Notes under the pieces: generated by a model
Told to the model about the DNA's origin: nothing
Database searches by the model: none
Seen by the model: only the letters and a program-made list of their open reading frames with translations
Program-made: the position numbers and the translations under genes
In this document: positions 1-5,011 of the stretch, piece after piece
Layout of the letters: every line of letters begins with the position of its first letter
Position numbering within the stretch: position 1 is the stretch's first letter
DNA from: a virus
Reading direction: 5' to 3' (one strand)
Virus record (IMG/VR): IMGVR_UViG_3300020029_000227
Span: 1-5,011 of that record
DNA: 5,011 bases

Positions 1-121
1 TGGATTTAAAAATGGATTACGGTGTTCTAAAGGACTCGGCAAGTGTCACCTTACGAAGAGTTGGACGGAATTTTATCGCAAACAGTCCCGTTTATATTAC
101 ACTACCAAGGAAGGATATAAA
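1..121. repeat. Terminal direct repeat, identical to 4891-5011 (circular-contig overlap, not a biological repeat)
   Basis: Base-by-base reading shows 1-121 equals 4891-5011. 4890 is divisible by 3, so reading frames are preserved across the junction. Confidence 0.97.
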
Positions 122-397
122 GTGGCTTTGCCTGAGTATTGGCAACGAAAGATTTTTTCTCCCTCCGAACTCCGAAGGCTTCATTTCGAACATTCTGTCG
201 AGGAATCCTATAAACAACTCCGGCGTGAGGAGGATTTCCTTGATGTGTGGTTTACAAGACGGAAAACTTGTTCCTTTGAGGAGCTTGAATGCCTCTTTGA
301 AACCTCGCCCTATTTTGTCGATCACAGGAATAGGGAAAGAGATTTGCACAAATCAGTAATTATGTATGATTGTTTATTAAAGAAACATAAAATTTAA
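2..397 (+). CDS. Replication initiation protein VP4, C-terminal part (same gene as 4373-5011 after circularisation)
   Basis: The frame is continuous with 4373.. across the junction and stops at TAA 395-397. Track ORF 122..397 is this frame; its M is an internal GTG codon. It contains ...GFKNGLRCSKGLG...ALPEYWQRKIF..., typical of the region downstream of motif 3 in microvirus Rep proteins. Confidence 0.9.
   Translation, partial: GFKNGLRCSKGLGKCHLTKSWTEFYRKQSRLYYTTKEGYKVALPEYWQRKIFSPSELRRLHFEHSVEESYKQLRREEDFLDVWFTRRKTCSFEELECLFETSPYFVDHRNRERDLHKSVIMYDCLLKKHKI
12..359 (+). CDS. C-terminal 115 codons of candidate overprinted ORF-X, or alternatively a shorter embedded gene starting at ATG 12
   Basis: Track ORF 12..359 lies in the +1 frame of rep. 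ATG 12 sits in the context ATTTAAAAATGG, nearly identical to the capsid start context ATTTAAAATGG at 392-402. The frame is open upstream across the junction. No family was recognised. Confidence 0.35.
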   Translation: MDYGVLKDSASVTLRRVGRNFIANSPVYITLPRKDIKWLCLSIGNERFFLPPNSEGFISNILSRNPINNSGVRRISLMCGLQDGKLVPLRSLNASLKPRPILSITGIGKEICTNQ

Positions 398-398
398 A

Positions 399-2069
399 AT
401 GGCACGTAATAATATTAATTCGGTTTTATTGAAGAGACCTAAACGTAATAAGTTTGACCTCTCACGTGTGAATAAGCTTACTTGCGAGGCAGGTGAGATT
501 GTTCCTTTTTTCTTAGAAGAGTGTTTGCCGGATGATTCGTTTAAATTGGCTACTGCTAATCGTATTCGTCTTGCACCTCAGGTTCTTCCTCTTATGCATC
601 AAATTGATGTATCAATGTATTGGTTTTTTGTTCCCTGTCGTATTCTTTGGCCTAATTGGGAAGAGTTTATAACAGGTGGTAAAGATGGTACTTCTGAGCC
701 TATTATTCCTTATACTAATTTTGGTCAAGGTAGTTCTTCTCAAATGAGAACTGCTGGTGTTGGCATGCTTTCTGATTATCTAGGTGTGCCTACAAATGCT
801 GTTTCGGCTACCTTTGGTTCTATTGCTGCCAATTCTTTTAATTTTCTTCCTTTTTCCGCTTATATTAAGATTTATAATGATTATTTTCGTGATGAGAACT
901 TTACAAATGAGCTTCCTTTTGAATTGAAAGATGGTTATCAGAGGATAGATAGAAATACTACTGATAGTGCAGTTTCTACTGCTATTCAGGCTATTTATGG
1001 TGGTGCTATCAGCTCTCCTGTTGCTCATTCTTGGCAGCGTGTTTATGGAGGTTGTTTTTTAGCTTCTTGGAAAAAAGAGTATTTTACTTCTGCTCTTCCG
1101 AATATCCAGAGAGGCCCTGTTGTAAACATTCCTCTTGGTGATAAAGCGCCTGTTGTTTATAATGATGGTACTAGAGATGTTTCGCTTCGGATGGTTGATC
1201 AAGCTTCGACCGGTCTCTTTACTGAGGTTCAAGGCAATTTGCATGAAGATGGTAAACACTTTGATTTTCGTAACTCTGATGTTGTTGGAATTGGTCAGAA
1301 GGATATTTACGCAGATCTGTCTGATGCTACAAATACTAATATTATTGAGCTTCGCCGTGCTTTCCGGATTCAGGAATTTTTGGAACGCATGAATGCTGGT
1401 GGTTCTCGTCTTACTGAGATGATTTATTCAATGTTTGGCGTTAAATCTCCGGATGCCCGTTTGCAGCGTGCTGAATTTATTGGAGCTTCTCATAATCCGG
1501 TTCTTGTCGATGCTATTTATCAGACCTCGGCCTCTCAAGAAAATTCTCCTCTTGCTGATTTTGCTGGTAAGGCTATTTCAGTTGGTGGACAGAAGCCTAT
1601 TTCCTACTATTGTAAAGAACATGGTTATATCATGGGTCTTATGATTATTCGTCCTCGCCCCGAATATCAGAATATTACACGTCGTCACTGGCTTCATGGT
1701 TTGACTGGCAAGTTTGACTATTTTTGGCCTATTTTGGCTAATATTGGTGATCAAGAGATACAGAATCGTGAATTATATGCTGGTAATGGTGTTTCCACCA
1801 AAGTCTTTGGTTATACTCCTCGTTATCAAGAGTATAGATTTGCTCCTTCTGAAACTCATGGTGAAATGCAAACTGATTTGAAGTATTTTCATATGAATCG
1901 CATTTTTGATTCTACACCTGTTCTAAATCAGCAGTTTATGAATTGCACCCCTCGTACTGATATGTTTGCTGTCACTGATGGTAAAATTTCTCATCATTAT
2001 TGGTGTGAGATTTTGATTGGTTGTCAGGCTAAACGTCCTATTCCTAAGTTTGGTACTCCAATGCTTTAA
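399..2069 (+). CDS. Major capsid protein VP1 (Microviridae F-protein family), 556 aa
   Basis: The N-terminus ...RPKRNKFDLSRVNKLTCEAGEIVPFFLEECLPDDSF... matches the conserved microvirus capsid N-terminal signature (FDLS..., G.l.P, e.lPgD). The size fits gokushovirus-type VP1. T-ending codon bias is strong. The start is 1 nt after the rep stop. Confidence 0.95.
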   Translation: MARNNINSVLLKRPKRNKFDLSRVNKLTCEAGEIVPFFLEECLPDDSFKLATANRIRLAPQVLPLMHQIDVSMYWFFVPCRILWPNWEEFITGGKDGTSEPIIPYTNFGQGSSSQMRTAGVGMLSDYLGVPTNAVSATFGSIAANSFNFLPFSAYIKIYNDYFRDENFTNELPFELKDGYQRIDRNTTDSAVSTAIQAIYGGAISSPVAHSWQRVYGGCFLASWKKEYFTSALPNIQRGPVVNIPLGDKAPVVYNDGTRDVSLRMVDQASTGLFTEVQGNLHEDGKHFDFRNSDVVGIGQKDIYADLSDATNTNIIELRRAFRIQEFLERMNAGGSRLTEMIYSMFGVKSPDARLQRAEFIGASHNPVLVDAIYQTSASQENSPLADFAGKAISVGGQKPISYYCKEHGYIMGLMIIRPRPEYQNITRRHWLHGLTGKFDYFWPILANIGDQEIQNRELYAGNGVSTKVFGYTPRYQEYRFAPSETHGEMQTDLKYFHMNRIFDSTPVLNQQFMNCTPRTDMFAVTDGKISHHYWCEILIGCQAKRPIPKFGTPML

Positions 2070-2073
2070 TATT

Positions 2074-2463
2074 ATGAAGATTAGAAATAAATGGATTGAT
2101 AACGTGCCTCTTTCAGAGGTTTCTGAACCTGTTTTAGGTGAGTCTATGACTCTTCCTGATCAGAGTATGTCTATTACTGAGATTTTCCAGCGTTTTGCTT
2201 TAGGTCAACATCTTGATATTGGTGATACTCGTGATCCTGTTTATGGTGATACGATGGAAGAATATGAGTTTGATGAATTGCACGATATGCTTCCCAAGCG
2301 TGATGTAGATGAAGTTTTTGATCCCGAAGATAAAGAGTCTTCTCGATCGAGCGAAGGCGAGCAGGCTCCGGCCGTCCCTCGGACGGACATAGGCAAGGAG
2401 CCCGCACCGCAGGTCTCCGATTCTCCCTCAGAGAGCGAAAATCAGAGCGTAGCAGCGAAGTAA
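2074..2463 (+). CDS. Acidic protein, probable internal scaffolding protein (VP3-like), 129 aa, with a GC-rich disordered C-terminal tail
   Basis: ATG 2074 lies 4 nt after the capsid stop, in frame with track ORF 2017..2463. SMTLPDQSMSITEIFQRFALGQ...DPVYGD resembles the conserved core I recall in gokushovirus-type VP3 proteins. The product is highly acidic (D/E rich). Codons are T-biased up to about 2335, then GC-rich. Confidence 0.6.
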   Translation: MKIRNKWIDNVPLSEVSEPVLGESMTLPDQSMSITEIFQRFALGQHLDIGDTRDPVYGDTMEEYEFDELHDMLPKRDVDEVFDPEDKESSRSSEGEQAPAVPRTDIGKEPAPQVSDSPSESENQSVAAK

Positions 2464-2471
2464 CGTAGTGG

Positions 2472-2501
2472 ATAAGCTAAATACGCTTTGATTGAGCTTA
2501 T
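2472..2501 (+). other. Imperfect hairpin in the intergenic region
   Basis: ATAAGCT (2472-2478) pairs with AGCTTAT (2495-2501). Three further pairs follow after one mismatch, leaving an 8-nt loop. Confidence 0.5.
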
Positions 2502-2512
2502 ACGACGCCCCC

Positions 2513-2544
2513 AAGGCTAGGACGACTCCTAGCCTTAATTTTTT
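2513..2544 (+). terminator. Rho-independent terminator downstream of the VP1/VP3-like genes
   Basis: Perfect 9-bp stem AAGGCTAGG (2513-2521) with CCTAGCCTT (2528-2536), a 6-nt loop ACGACT, then AA and TTTTTT (2539-2544). Confidence 0.8.
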
Positions 2545-2552
2545 GTCAACTA

Positions 2553-2571
2553 GGCAAGACTTATTCTTGCC
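2553..2571 (+). other. Short perfect hairpin between terminator and promoter
   Basis: GGCAAGA (2553-2559) pairs with TCTTGCC (2565-2571) around the loop CTTAT. No T-tract follows. Confidence 0.5.
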
Positions 2572-2604
2572 GTGCGCCCCTTCTACTTGACATATTTATC
2601 GCAG

Positions 2605-2635
2605 TTGACACCAAATTTAAAAAATGTTAAATTTG
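2605..2635 (+). promoter_or_regulatory. Promoter driving the 66-aa orphan, the 171-aa orphan and downstream genes
   Basis: TTGACA (2605-2610), a 17-nt spacer, then TGtTAAATT as an extended -10 (2625-2633). The same -10 region reads TAAATTTG (2628-2635), matching the Bacteroidota -7 consensus TAnnTTTG. This is the only sizeable non-coding region, and it lies directly after the terminator. Confidence 0.6.
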
Positions 2636-2636
2636 G
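2611..2636. promoter_or_regulatory. Perfect 9-8-9 inverted repeat overlapping the -10 element (candidate operator, recombinase core site or origin element)
   Basis: CCAAATTTA (2611-2619), then AAAAATGT, then TAAATTTGG (2628-2636). The two arms are exact reverse complements. Confidence 0.6.
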
Positions 2637-2688
2637 ATTTTGTATTGTTTTTTTTATTACACTTGCATTGTAACTAAAACATACCAAT

Positions 2689-2889
2689 ATGAGACGTTAT
2701 TATTATTCTTTTTATTATGCTGAAGGTCCCATGAGAGGGGATTTGATTACCACTATTAATTTTGTTGTTTGTGGTTTTTTTAATGCTGAGTTTATGGCTA
2801 AGTGTTATTCTTACTGTTTGGCTCTTAGTAGTACTCCTTATTACTCTGTTAATTATGAATATATAAAATCTGAAATTTATGAAAGATAG
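2689..2889 (+). CDS. Hypothetical small protein, 66 aa, tyrosine/aromatic-rich
   Basis: By my count 45 of 67 codons end in T, the same bias as the capsid gene, which supports this frame as coding. It is the first ORF after the promoter and overlaps the next start by 11 nt. 12 Tyr and 5 Phe in 66 residues. No family was recognised. Confidence 0.55.
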   Translation: MRRYYYSFYYAEGPMRGDLITTINFVVCGFFNAEFMAKCYSYCLALSSTPYYSVNYEYIKSEIYER

Positions 2890-3394
2890 TAATTCTTATT
2901 TTGAAATGTTGCAGGCTCATTTTGCTTTAAAACGTCGTTCTATTGAATCTTTGATTAATCATCCTCGTATTCAAAAACAATCTCTTTGTGATCTTGCTTT
3001 TGAAGAGGCGCTTTTTAAAGGTATGCAAGATTTTCTTTCTTCTAGACCTATTATTTGTGATGTTGTTCAGAATAAGACTGGTAAACCTACTCCGGAGGTT
3101 GTTTTGACTCCTTGTTCTGTATTGCATGATATTTTGAATTATTATCCTGTTTATCAATGTACTTTGTTTGATGACAATAAGCTTGATTCTGTTATGTTTC
3201 AGGTTCTTTTTAAAGATGATCAGAATCAACCTGATCGGTTTATGATTTATCCTTTAAATTCTTTGGATGATATTCAGTCTTTGCCTGATAAGATAACTAA
3301 AGATACAGGCCGTCCTGTTGAGCTTTATCCTCTTTTTATTCGTGAGGCTGGTACTCTCGATTGGAAACCTTATTTGTCTGATTTAAAAGATTAA
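2879..3394 (+). CDS. Hypothetical protein, 171 aa (orphan accessory gene)
   Basis: Long ORF with strong T-ending codon bias. It is tightly packed, with a stop 4 nt before the VP2 start. I can recognise no motif. It is not part of the canonical microvirus core set. Confidence 0.8.
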   Translation: MKDSNSYFEMLQAHFALKRRSIESLINHPRIQKQSLCDLAFEEALFKGMQDFLSSRPIICDVVQNKTGKPTPEVVLTPCSVLHDILNYYPVYQCTLFDDNKLDSVMFQVLFKDDQNQPDRFMIYPLNSLDDIQSLPDKITKDTGRPVELYPLFIREAGTLDWKPYLSDLKD

Positions 3395-3398
3395 TATT

Positions 3399-4265
3399 AT
3401 GCCTCCTGAAATTGCTTCTGCTCTTATTGGAGCTGGTTCCGGTTTAGTTGGTAGCTTATTTGGCGGCGCTTCTAATAAGAAGGCTGCTAAGATTGCAGCT
3501 AAGCAGTCTGAAAAGAATCTTCAGACTCAGATTAATTATGCTCGAGAATCTGCTGATCTTGAATGGAAACGCAATTTGGAGCAGTGGAATCGTGAAAATG
3601 CTTATAATGATCCTTCGCAAGTTATTCAGCGTCTTCAGAATGCTGGTTTGTCGCCTGCTTTGGCTCTTGGTAATTATGGTGGTAATACTGCCGCTGGTTC
3701 TCCTAGTTATTCAATGGGTGATATTGATGCTTCAAAGGTCAAGTCCGCAGGTGCCGGACAGATTGGTCAGGCTTTTAGCCAGTTTCTTACAGGTATGATG
3801 CCTGCTGCGATGGAAATTATGAATCGCCGCCGTGATCTTGATTTAAAGGATACACAAGAGACGAATATAGCCGCGGACACTGATGTTAAGAGTACCGCTG
3901 CTGATCTTAATCGTGTTGAAGCTTTTACTCGTCAGATGAATGGTCTTATGGATTTTGCTTCTAAACATTTTGATTATAATATGAAGCGTCGTTTGGCTGA
4001 TAATACGTTGGAAATGGCTTCTGCGAATCTTCAGAAGCTTTATTTAGATATGGCTTCGTCTAGAAAGCTTAATGATTTGCGTGATCTTGAGATGGAATCT
4101 AAAAGAGGTGATTTGTGGCGTTTGCAGGTAGAGAAGGATAAATATCAGAAGATGGGTATACTTCCTGGTGAAGCTGGTATCTTTGGTTCTTTGAAAGGTC
4201 TTTTCTATGGTATTTTTAAAATGTTGTCTGGTTCAGAAGATCGTTCTGGCTTTTTTGAATATTAA
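3399..4265 (+). CDS. Minor capsid / DNA pilot protein (VP2, H-like), 288 aa
   Basis: Gly-rich hydrophobic N-terminus ALIGAGSGLVGSLFGG. The stretch YNDPSQVIQRLQNAGLSPALALG matches the conserved VP2 signature (YNsP..Q..Rl..AGLNP.L). The C-terminal half is predicted to be coiled-coil-like. Size and position fit VP2. Confidence 0.82.
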   Translation: MPPEIASALIGAGSGLVGSLFGGASNKKAAKIAAKQSEKNLQTQINYARESADLEWKRNLEQWNRENAYNDPSQVIQRLQNAGLSPALALGNYGGNTAAGSPSYSMGDIDASKVKSAGAGQIGQAFSQFLTGMMPAAMEIMNRRRDLDLKDTQETNIAADTDVKSTAADLNRVEAFTRQMNGLMDFASKHFDYNMKRRLADNTLEMASANLQKLYLDMASSRKLNDLRDLEMESKRGDLWRLQVEKDKYQKMGILPGEAGIFGSLKGLFYGIFKMLSGSEDRSGFFEY

Positions 4266-4283
4266 TTTTAAAATTTTATTGTT

Positions 4284-4370
4284 ATGAGAAGAAGAAAAAG
4301 AAGAGTTCGTCGTTCACGTCGTAGAAGAGTTCGTACTTATAGAGTTTCACGAGGTGGTATTAGGTTGTAG
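4284..4370 (+). CDS. Small arginine-rich DNA-binding/packaging peptide (phiX174 J-like / gokushovirus ORF8-VP8-like), 28 aa
   Basis: MRRRKRRVRRSRRRRVRTYRVSRGGIRL has 15 Arg and 1 Lys in 28 residues. It sits between VP2 and rep and stops 2 nt before the rep ATG. It is below the ORF-track length cutoff. Confidence 0.75.
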   Translation: MRRRKRRVRRSRRRRVRTYRVSRGGIRL

Positions 4371-4372
4371 TT

Positions 4373-5011
4373 ATGAAGTGTACTTCGCCTCTTAAATTAG
4401 GCTCTCGGATTGTTCCTTGTGGCAAATGTTATGCTTGTCGTAGTAAACGTCGCAACCAATGGTCTGCTCGTCTTACTGAAGAGGCGAGGTATCATGAGAG
4501 AAATGGTAAACAAAATTTATTTATAACTTTAACTTATGATGAAGAAAACGTCCCTTTTATTCAAACAGATGCAGGAGCGGTTCGAGTTGCAGTGTTGCAA
4601 GACGTGTCCGCATTTATCAAAAGGTTGCGTAGAGCCTTGTATGGAAGCAAGAAGGGAGATTTACGGTTCTTCGCCGTTTCGGAATATGGCCCTAAAACTC
4701 TCCGACCTCATTTTCATATTATACTGTTTGGTCTTCCACCCAAAACGATACGCATCCTTACGAGACTCATTGAAAAGGCGTGGAATTACCAAGGTTTTGT
4801 CACGGTGTCTCATGTTACTCGTGGTCGTATTAGGTATTGTGCTAAGTATTGTCTCTCTGAGTTCATGCTCCCCCATGAGATCGTTGAGGCTGGATTTAAA
4901 AATGGATTACGGTGTTCTAAAGGACTCGGCAAGTGTCACCTTACGAAGAGTTGGACGGAATTTTATCGCAAACAGTCCCGTTTATATTACACTACCAAGG
5001 AAGGATATAAA
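4373..5011 (+). CDS. Replication initiation protein (Microviridae VP4 / phiX174 A-like HUH endonuclease), N-terminal part. It continues through the circular junction to 397, giving 304 aa in total.
   Basis: ATG at 4373, 2 nt after the J-like stop. Translation: MKCTSPLKLGSRIVPCGKCYACRSKRRNQW... (CxxCxxC). FITLTY is motif 1. EYGPKTLRPHFHIILFG is the HUH motif, with its first His codon at 4709. RYCAKY is the YxxKY catalytic tyrosine pair as in phiX174 A, with the Tyr codon at 4835. SKGLG follows. The frame stays open to the window end. Confidence 0.93.
   Translation, partial: MKCTSPLKLGSRIVPCGKCYACRSKRRNQWSARLTEEARYHERNGKQNLFITLTYDEENVPFIQTDAGAVRVAVLQDVSAFIKRLRRALYGSKKGDLRFFAVSEYGPKTLRPHFHIILFGLPPKTIRILTRLIEKAWNYQGFVTVSHVTRGRIRYCAKYCLSEFMLPHEIVEAGFKNGLRCSKGLGKCHLTKSWTEFYRKQSRLYYTTKEGYK
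4536..5011 (+). CDS. Candidate overprinted gene (ORF-X) in the +1 frame of rep, N-terminal part. The full ORF is 237 codons, running 4536 through the junction to 359.
   Basis: TAA at 4530-4532, then ATG ATG at 4536/4539. I found no stop in hand translation up to the window end, and the frame joins track ORF 12..359. Translation begins MMKKTSLLFKQMQERFELQCCKTCPHLSKGCVEPCMEARREIYGSSPFRNMALKLSDLIFILYCLVFHPKRYASLRDSLKRRGITKVLSRCLMLLVVVLGIVLSIVSLSSCSPMRSLRLDLK-MDYGV... It is coextensive with the tract where rep loses its T-ending codon bias. Confidence 0.35.
   Translation, partial: MMKKTSLLFKQMQERFELQCCKTCPHLSKGCVEPCMEARREIYGSSPFRNMALKLSDLIFILYCLVFHPKRYASLRDSLKRRGITKVLSRCLMLLVVVLGIVLSIVSLSSCSPMRSLRLDLKMDYGVLKDSASVTLRRVGRNFIANSPVYITLPRKDI
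4891..5011. repeat. Second copy of the terminal redundancy (equals 1-121)
   Basis: Identical 121-nt string at both window ends. Confidence 0.97.

Follow-up and report, generated by a model that had tools for sequence, protein, structure and literature searches.

The stretch of DNA studied here, the window, covers 5,011 nucleotides (nt; positions 1 to 5,011) of IMG/VR virus record IMGVR_UViG_3300020029_000227, and our subject is an open reading frame (ORF), ORF-X, that lies inside its replication gene, rep. The last part of the window, 4891..5011, is an exact copy of positions 1-121, the terminal redundancy of a circular assembly, so that the genome is a circle of 4,890 nt, a length divisible by 3. 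Across the junction runs rep (VP4), which encodes the HUH replication initiator: its 5' part occupies 4373..5011 on the forward strand and its 3' part 1..397 (1-121 being the repeat copy), with a stop codon TAA at 395-397 and a total of 915 nt (4373..397) and 304 amino acids (aa). ORF-X is read from the same strand in the +1 frame relative to rep, its 5' part (codons 1-159) at 4536..5011 and its 3' part at 1..359, where it ends with TAA at 357-359; it counts 238 codons with the stop, or 237 aa, lies wholly within rep and covers 78% of the 304-aa Rep. Linear ORF finders miss it because the redundancy of 4891-5011 and 1-121 splits the frame at the junction. A preliminary description of this DNA had reported the 121-nt terminal repeat, the frame and its boundaries, and all of these coordinates were confirmed.

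Results

ORF-X and the replication gene

The identity of Rep is clear from its matches to Pfam PF23343 (REP_ORF2-G2P, E = 1.4e-17) and PHROG 942 (replication initiation protein, E = 1.8e-57), and its translation shows motif I (FITLTY), the HUH motif HFHIILF and the catalytic-Tyr motif YCAKYC that characterize an HUH initiator VP4. ORF-X spans HUH motif II and the catalytic-Tyr motif III, and is the fourth-longest stop-to-stop ORF in the genome; in the +2 frame of rep, the window and each relative have about 30 stops. On the forward strand, a +1-frame stop TAA at 4530-4532 followed by the tandem ATG ATG at 4536/4539 (4530..4541) comes directly after Rep motif I. The putative translation-initiation region of ORF-X, 4501..4535 on the same strand, is A/U-rich, unstructured and without a Shine-Dalgarno sequence; the 60 nt around the start fold at -2.0 kcal/mol, and those of the VP1 start at -1.2 kcal/mol. 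Such weak folding is compatible with internal initiation without a Shine-Dalgarno sequence.

Relatives that share ORF-X

Relatives were gathered from IMG/VR, from metagenome contigs and through look-ups of Rep and ORF-X homologues. The identity of their Rep proteins to that of the window goes from 94-95% (L001, L002 and L007/L008) through 82% (L009; 81% in L010, whose 5' end is cut), 76% (L003, L004), 71% (L038), 61% (L039) and 58% (L040-L042) to 41-42% (L043, L044/L045). All intact relatives, which represent at least seven lineages from 94% to 41% Rep identity, have the frame open between the same boundaries. The upstream +1 stop is found at rep nt 155/158 in every lineage and a start codon follows 1-4 codons past it in all of them (L039 has a GTG at codon 2, ahead of its first ATG at codon 5), while the end falls at rep nt 875-884 except in L039 and L040, where it lies at 917-929. 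In these last two (L039:1533-2461 and L040:807-1723) ORF-X has no stop before that of rep and extends 2-14 nt past it, into the start of VP1; rep and VP1 of L040 overlap (ATGA), so that three frames are briefly in use.

The distribution of ORF-X is narrow. Most microvirus rep genes at 28-46% identity have +1 ORFs of only 35-130 codons and lack ORF-X, and it is also absent from the outgroup, Parabacteroides phage YZ-2015a, which has 10 stops in the frame. An exhaustive profile search over 1.84 billion (1.84e9) representatives returned two clusters only, both of them ORF-X, from window-like and L044-like lineages, and tblastn against 50,697 phage records matched only two close relatives. Since the profile matches are confined to two clusters of its own clade, the search fits a de novo origin. 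Judged from these sequences, ORF-X is a conserved, clade-specific feature.

Some of the relatives deserve separate mention. Contigs L005 (jgi 3300076549) and L006 (ERZ28574559) were used for their intact parts only: L005 is rearranged past rep codon 261, with VP1 on the opposite strand, a chimeric or inverted assembly that looks like an artefact, and in L006 rep is interrupted by a stretch of N, which also looks like an assembly artefact. The identical rep genes of L007:144-1058 and L008:1144-2058 (from the independent runs SRR10682125 and SRR18467445) carry an in-frame TAG in place of GAG at codon 172 (window 4886-4888), and ORF-X is intact there, with 236 aa. Their truncated Rep (171 aa) would retain motifs I-III, and the gene caller listed ORF-X, not rep. 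The TAG could mean a viable short Rep, read-through or suppression of the TAG, or a defective genome. Callers likewise listed ORF-X in place of rep in the public contigs L004:2468-3178 and L046:71-784 and for the proteins P0001-P0006 and P0092, in the case of L004 with an intact rep. ORF-X is stored in databases as an unnamed hypothetical protein, with rep missing, because the callers chose ORF-X. Finally, in L017:2971-3837 and L020:984-1874, whose Rep proteins are 30-32% identical to that of the window, the rep +1 ORFs have 182 and 199 codons, lengths that were reached in 0 of 5000 synonymous shuffles; judging from these two, overprinting of Rep may be recurrent in Microviridae.

Stop codons and composition

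When the synonymous codons of rep are permuted and the Rep protein is kept, the +1 frame stays open for at least 238 codons in 0.05% of shuffles with the whole-rep codon pool (P = 0.0005) and in 0.115% with the overlap codons only (P = 0.00115); for the interval in the window the expectation is about 5.7 stops, against 0 observed. The means by which stops are avoided can be read from the codons themselves, just as the preliminary description had counted them: the overlap contains 5 NTA and 12 NTG codons of rep, none of which makes a +1 stop, 16 of the 17 precede a pyrimidine, and it is the terminal rep GTA, followed by ATT, that creates the stop of ORF-X itself. Shuffles run separately on the window, L001, L002, L007, L003, L009, L038, L039, L040, L043 and L044 predict 4.3-6.9 stops per lineage, with a probability of 0 stops from 0.003 to below 5e-5, and these tests are nearly independent because the synonymous sites of VP1 and VP2 are saturated between the deeper lineages. 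In the same genomes, VP1, VP2 and orf171 have 6-26 stops each in their +1 frames, and no position-conserved long +1 ORF was found in these three genes; the longest in the window are of 88 codons in VP1 and 116 in VP2, within the limit of 116 codons first given.

The overlap also has a composition of its own. T-ending codons make up 0.54 of rep codons 1-54, 0.36 of the overlap, 0.50 of the last 12 rep codons and 0.57-0.67 of VP1, VP2 and orf171; C-ending codons go from 0.07 to 0.19 on entering the overlap, the G+C of which is 0.436 vs 0.387 in rep codons 1-54 (47 in 4601-4700, the value first given). The low T-ending share of 18 of 56 codons from 4550 (0.32) noted in the preliminary description was reproduced; its figure of about two thirds for the beginning of rep was too high.

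That description had warned that a GC-richer tract lowers stop frequency by itself, and the frame could in principle be an artefact of this kind, in which a GC-richer rep, poor in T at position 3, has few +1 stops and close relatives have simply inherited the frame. The composition of the overlap and the fact that +1 is generically the least stop-rich alternative frame, as the 35-130-codon ORFs of distant microvirus reps illustrate, speak for this possibility. However, shuffles confined to the overlap codons preserve that composition and still give P of about 0.001, the result is repeated in lineages whose synonymous sites are mutually saturated, and the outgroup YZ-2015a has its 10 stops. The compositional shift is moreover what dual coding itself predicts, and the overlap would be T-poor and GC-richer for that reason. 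An artefact of this sort is extremely unlikely, and the open ORF-X frame is not due to chance or composition.

Synonymous constraint in rep

Synonymous change in rep is suppressed over 4493..4972 (forward strand), which corresponds to rep codons ~41-200 and to ORF-X residues 1-146; the suppression that the preliminary description had suggested testing for over the whole overlap is thus borne out for this part and not for all 237 residues. Between close pairs, the frequency of synonymous differences at codons for identical amino acids is lower by a factor of 1.5-2.3 in the overlap than it is in rep codons 1-54, VP1 or VP2. Position 1 of the rep codons, which is the wobble position of ORF-X, diverges in the overlap as fast as position 3, whereas in the controls it lags behind position 3 by a factor of 1.7-2. 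In the seven closest genomes, the number of synonymous events per codon falls 3-fold, to 0.23 in rep codons 55-200, from the control values of 0.72 in rep codons 1-53, 0.73 in rep codons 201-292, 0.60 in VP1 and 0.70 in VP2, and 29% of fourfold sites are variable in the constrained interval vs 68% in the controls (Fisher p = 1.3e-5).

The deep lineages were compared at columns with identical amino acids, under a null model in which each region retains its own codon usage. The same-codon excess is +0.19 to +0.30 in the rep overlap (z 5.4-8.9), -0.05 to +0.07 in rep codons 1-54, 0.00-0.06 in VP1 and 0.02-0.04 in VP2. In a sliding-window profile the constraint rises from rep codon ~41-50, peaks at 0.84-0.87 over codons 141-180 and is at baseline after codon ~200, and its onset coincides with ORF-X and its initiation region. 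A whole-gene shuffle null for +1-frame identity was rejected: it produced an excess in rep codons 1-54 too, which was gone with region-specific codon usage.

As for the amino acid sequence of Rep, it has diverged more than the capsid protein VP1 (39-42% vs 64% identity between the window and L043), and within close pairs codons 1-54 are less divergent than the overlap. This higher divergence of Rep fits a Rep that pays a cost for, or adapts to, an overlapping gene.

Features of the predicted protein

The one feature common to all lineages is a hydrophobic helix of ~20 residues. In the window, a transmembrane (TM) helix is predicted at ORF-X residues 88-110, LSRCLMLLVVVLGIVLSIVSLSS (4797..4865, forward strand), written over Rep YCAKYC, and its Kyte-Doolittle 19-residue mean is 2.86 (2.84-3.09 across lineages). 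Its IVLSIV core, nearly invariant, needs six specific synonymous choices over YCAKYC and is kept down to the 41% lineage; the synonymous conservation of rep is at its highest over the TM interval. The helix is followed at once by [LVAW]-[ST]-[SA]-Cys, with a Cys that is invariant in 11 of 11 sequences. The PROSITE-style lipobox pattern, [LVI][ASTVI][GAS]C, matches 9 of the 11, and L038 and L040 miss it at position -4 alone.

The codons at this point indicate that the constraint acts on the ORF-X protein. Ser110-Cys111-Ser112 of ORF-X (4863..4871, forward strand) is encoded by rep TTC-NTG-CTC, and a Ser-Cys-Ser right after the hydrophobic segment, always over TTC-NTG-CTC, is found in 11/11 sequences. 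Rep residue 165 may be Met, Val or Leu, solely as ATG, GTG or TTG, and the base that changes is the wobble of the preceding ORF-X codon (TCA, TCG, TCT). Leu166 is always CTC, a codon that accounts for 1-10% of Leu codons in other genes, Val at 165 is always GTG (3-27% of Val codons elsewhere) and the flanking Phe is always TTC (7-20% of Phe codons). ORF-X Ser-Cys-Ser stays invariant because these rare rep codons are fixed.

The Cys cluster and the hydrophobic run of the preliminary description are both present, and 34% of the C-terminal 120 residues are S, R, N or P. The cluster, CCKTCPHLSKGCVEPC, at ORF-X residues 20-35 (4593..4640, forward strand), has Cx2Cx6Cx3C spacing (21-35), which persists as far as L040 but is gone from L043/L044, where the TM helix stays. 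Each of the 11 Cys of ORF-X arises where a pyrimidine follows a rep NTG codon, and because they are automatic readings of this combination we downgraded the cluster as functional evidence. The protein is basic (K+R 37, D+E 15, net charge about +22), and no relative was detected in Pfam, PHROG or NCBIfam at a meaningful E-value, nor any in the PDB.

Charge and cysteines raise the alternative of an assembly or replication accessory, comparable to B (an internal scaffold), C or A* of phiX174, for example a basic Cys4 protein that binds nucleic acid or Rep. It would lie within rep, as B does, its Cx2Cx6Cx3C motif is conserved as far as L040, and no VP3 or VP5 homologue was recognised among the other ORFs of the genome in Pfam, PHROG or NCBIfam. 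However, the most conserved feature of ORF-X is the hydrophobic helix with Ser-Cys-Ser, which is unexpected in a soluble scaffold, the Cys4 motif disappears in L043/L044 when the TM helix does not, and similarity to Pfam or PHROG families was not found. We consider such an accessory unlikely.

Other features of the genome

The window encodes the major capsid protein VP1 at 399-2069 (Pfam Phage_F, E = 1e-98) and the pilot protein VP2 at 3399-4265. Between VP2 and rep, an Arg-rich ORF of 28 codons, MRRRKRRVRRSRRRRVRTYRVSRGGIRL (4284-4370), is below the size at which ORFs were listed and has no family match; it is likely a J/VP8-type DNA-binding packaging peptide. Three further ORFs of the genome have no family matches, and no lysis or envelope gene was recognised elsewhere in it with Pfam, PHROG or NCBIfam. 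A GC-rich island at 2326-2690 (57% G+C vs a genome mean of 39%) is found at the 3' end of orf129 (2074-2463), where an acidic tail rich in Pro and Ser is encoded. The ~225-nt non-coding region after orf129, the only sizeable one, contains perfect 10-nt hairpins at 2513-2536 and 2611-2636 and is a candidate origin or terminator.

The GenBank pig-gut microviruses MG945165 and MT135354 are 87-89% identical to the window, and their records have nothing annotated in the rep +1 frame. Outside the clade, the closest named relative is Parabacteroides phage YZ-2015a, with a VP1 36% identical, and inspection of the sequence showed no obvious Shine-Dalgarno before any gene. The kinship with YZ-2015a and the absence of Shine-Dalgarno sequences suggest a host in the Bacteroidales.

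Discussion

The shuffles, the relatives and the synonymous constraint support the reading of ORF-X as an overprinted gene under selection, which had first been put forward for this DNA in the preliminary description. On this sequence-based evidence we estimate at roughly 0.8 the probability that ORF-X is a real, selected and translated overlapping gene that encodes a membrane protein. It would have arisen de novo, by overprinting of the rep +1 frame in one clade of gut microviruses that probably infect Bacteroidales, and its translation would be initiated internally and independently, from the conserved ATG that closely follows Rep motif I. The predicted product of ~237 aa would consist of a segment of ~87 residues at the N-terminus, probably cytoplasmic, the TM helix with its lipobox-like invariant Cys, a juxtamembrane stretch under purifying selection to about residue 146, and a loosely constrained tail of ~90 residues.

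Several results weigh against this reading, and the first of them come from the tail. The C-terminal third of ORF-X (~90 residues) shows no reduction of synonymous change, though it is open in all lineages, and its openness is unremarkable in each lineage taken separately (P0 0.09-0.55). The functional product could then be limited to the first ~110-146 codons, or to a shorter protein started internally, in which case 237 aa overstates the gene. The form with an internal start would be a lipoprotein precursor that begins ~20-35 codons before Cys111, with KRRGITKVLSR as n-region and the TM segment as h-region, and in both forms the C-terminal tail would be a nearly neutral read-on. A return to baseline synonymous constraint after rep codon ~200, a stop that drifts from rep nt 875 to 929, a tail openness that is not individually significant and a TM segment that, with its lipobox-like motif, resembles a signal peptide would all be accounted for in this way. 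However, the tail is open in every lineage, and multiplying the P0 values gives about 1e-4 on the assumption that the lineages are independent. That the sole product comes from an internal start is further opposed by a constraint that sets in where the annotated start lies (rep codons ~41-70), and no internal ATG before the TM helix was found to be conserved across lineages. We think a shorter product rather unlikely.

A second set of objections concerns the protein features. Hydrophobic runs and Cys arise by default in the +1 frame: NTG followed by a pyrimidine is read as Cys, and T at position 3, the base in which most codons of this genome end, gives NTN codons. It is therefore the conservation of the TM helix and of the Cys that is informative, and not their presence. 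The content of L+R+S, 29-37% of the protein, is as high as in non-coding ORFs (a criterion taken from PMC9865509), and the AlphaFold2 model, made from a 7-sequence alignment, is of low confidence (pLDDT 41.7). The lipobox-like Cys is found at residue 106-111, at a distance from the N-terminus that differs from the canonical lipoprotein position of about 15-35, behind a short basic n-region. With its Cys at residue ~111, ORF-X is not a canonical lipoprotein precursor.

The third set comes from tests of selection on the ORF-X protein itself. The conservativeness by BLOSUM62 of the ORF-X replacements that result from rep-synonymous changes has P of about 0.001, but the +1 frames of VP1 and VP2 also come out as 'significant', so that this test is confounded by the mutation spectrum and was rejected as evidence for selection. 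An OLGenie-style ratio of NN/NS at rep codon position 1 is 0.54 in the overlap vs 0.31-0.83 in the controls and does not discriminate between them. In addition, non-coding ORFs over Rep motifs can look conserved (PMC9865509), and because of this warning we rely on stop-avoidance statistics and on synonymous controls that are specific to each region.

Alternatively, the conserved synonymous sites could be signs of a nucleic-acid element in rep, such as an origin, a packaging or single-stranded DNA (ssDNA) structure or an mRNA structure, with the open frame as its untranslated by-product. In favour of this are the BLOSUM62 and NN/NS values, which resemble those of the controls, the conserved non-coding ORFs reported over Rep motifs (PMC9865509) and the origin of phiX174, which lies inside gene A. 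The constraint, however, extends over ~480 nt, far beyond the size of an origin, and the 225-nt non-coding region with its perfect hairpins offers another origin candidate. An element of this kind also leaves unexplained the zero stops in seven lineages, the conserved start right after the upstream stop and the variation at the ORF-X wobble position (TCA/TCG/TCT before an invariant TGC). We regard it as very improbable, and a translated ORF-X remains our preferred reading.

If ORF-X is translated, its helix and the motif that follows point to insertion in the membrane and, we infer, to a function directed at the envelope. By analogy with phiX174 E or with lipoprotein-type lysis factors, this function is possibly, and for now tentatively, host lysis or disruption of the envelope; to our knowledge, most gut microviruses have no known lysis gene. 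After lysis, modulation of the burst in the manner of phiX174 K, superinfection exclusion or tethering of replication to the membrane could be considered. A wider proposal, in which ORF-X would be the missing lysis or envelope-disruption gene of the clade, membrane-anchored and possibly lipid-modified, and large Rep overprints would be recurrent in Microviridae, is more doubtful.

ORF-X is of interest on several counts. It offers a testable case of a large gene of putative de novo origin in an abundant lineage of uncultured gut phages, and supplies a specific candidate gene for a role in lysis or at the envelope. Together, ORF-X and rep would make a natural experiment in how two proteins share codons, with rare Rep codons apparently fixed to serve ORF-X. 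It is also a warning for annotation, as public gene calls sometimes give ORF-X in place of Rep.

The best known parallels are in phiX174. Genes B and K inside gene A of the Bullavirinae are, like ORF-X, genes in a shifted frame on the same strand, wholly or largely within the replication-initiator gene of a microvirus, and share with it a de novo origin, probable in the case of ORF-X, and the fate of being overlooked when genes are called. The K protein is small, hydrophobic and located in the membrane. The overprinting statistics of B, E and K have been described (PMC9865509). ORF-X shows no homology to these proteins in Pfam, PHROG or NCBIfam and does not belong to their families. The overprinted genes of phiX174 nest in the variable region of Rep (PMC9865509), whereas ORF-X covers HUH motif II and the catalytic-Tyr motif III, and its clade consists of uncultured gut phages whose closest named relative is a Parabacteroides phage. 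Gene E in D offers a parallel for the predicted topology, as a membrane protein read in the +1 frame inside an essential microvirus gene; however, E has 91 aa and an N-terminal TM segment, the 237 aa of ORF-X have a central predicted TM segment and a lipobox-like Cys, and there is no homology between them. Single-gene lysis proteins, which by themselves lyse the host when expressed, have under ~100 aa, a size that ORF-X exceeds, although it does have a predicted TM segment.

Outside the Bullavirinae, the overprinted OG63 of reekeekeevirus Rep was inferred computationally (PMC9865509) and is, like ORF-X, an overprint in a microvirus Rep that is known from conservation and selection signals alone; it belongs to a different subfamily with tiny genomes (about 3 kb), and the ORF-X profile search matched nothing beyond its own clade. 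A further likeness is found in geminivirus C4/AC4, an overprinted, membrane-associated protein in the HUH Rep (C1) of a small ssDNA virus (PMC10356776), although it belongs to a eukaryotic virus, is unrelated in sequence and is anchored to the membrane by acylation. The lipobox-like Cys calls to mind lambda Rz1, an o-spanin lipoprotein nested in the +1 frame of Rz, and the bacteriocin-release lipoproteins, phage or plasmid proteins that disrupt the envelope and carry a lipobox Cys. These, however, are short precursors with an N-terminal signal peptide, and in ORF-X ~87 residues precede the hydrophobic segment. The global survey of microviruses explicitly left out overprinted genes outside Bullavirinae (PMC9239249), and we found no published description of ORF-X in the literature. 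Although overprinting of Rep as such was already known from phiX174 and OG63, ORF-X appears to be new and non-homologous, and what sets it apart is its size, 78% of Rep, together with its position over HUH motif II and the catalytic-Tyr motif.

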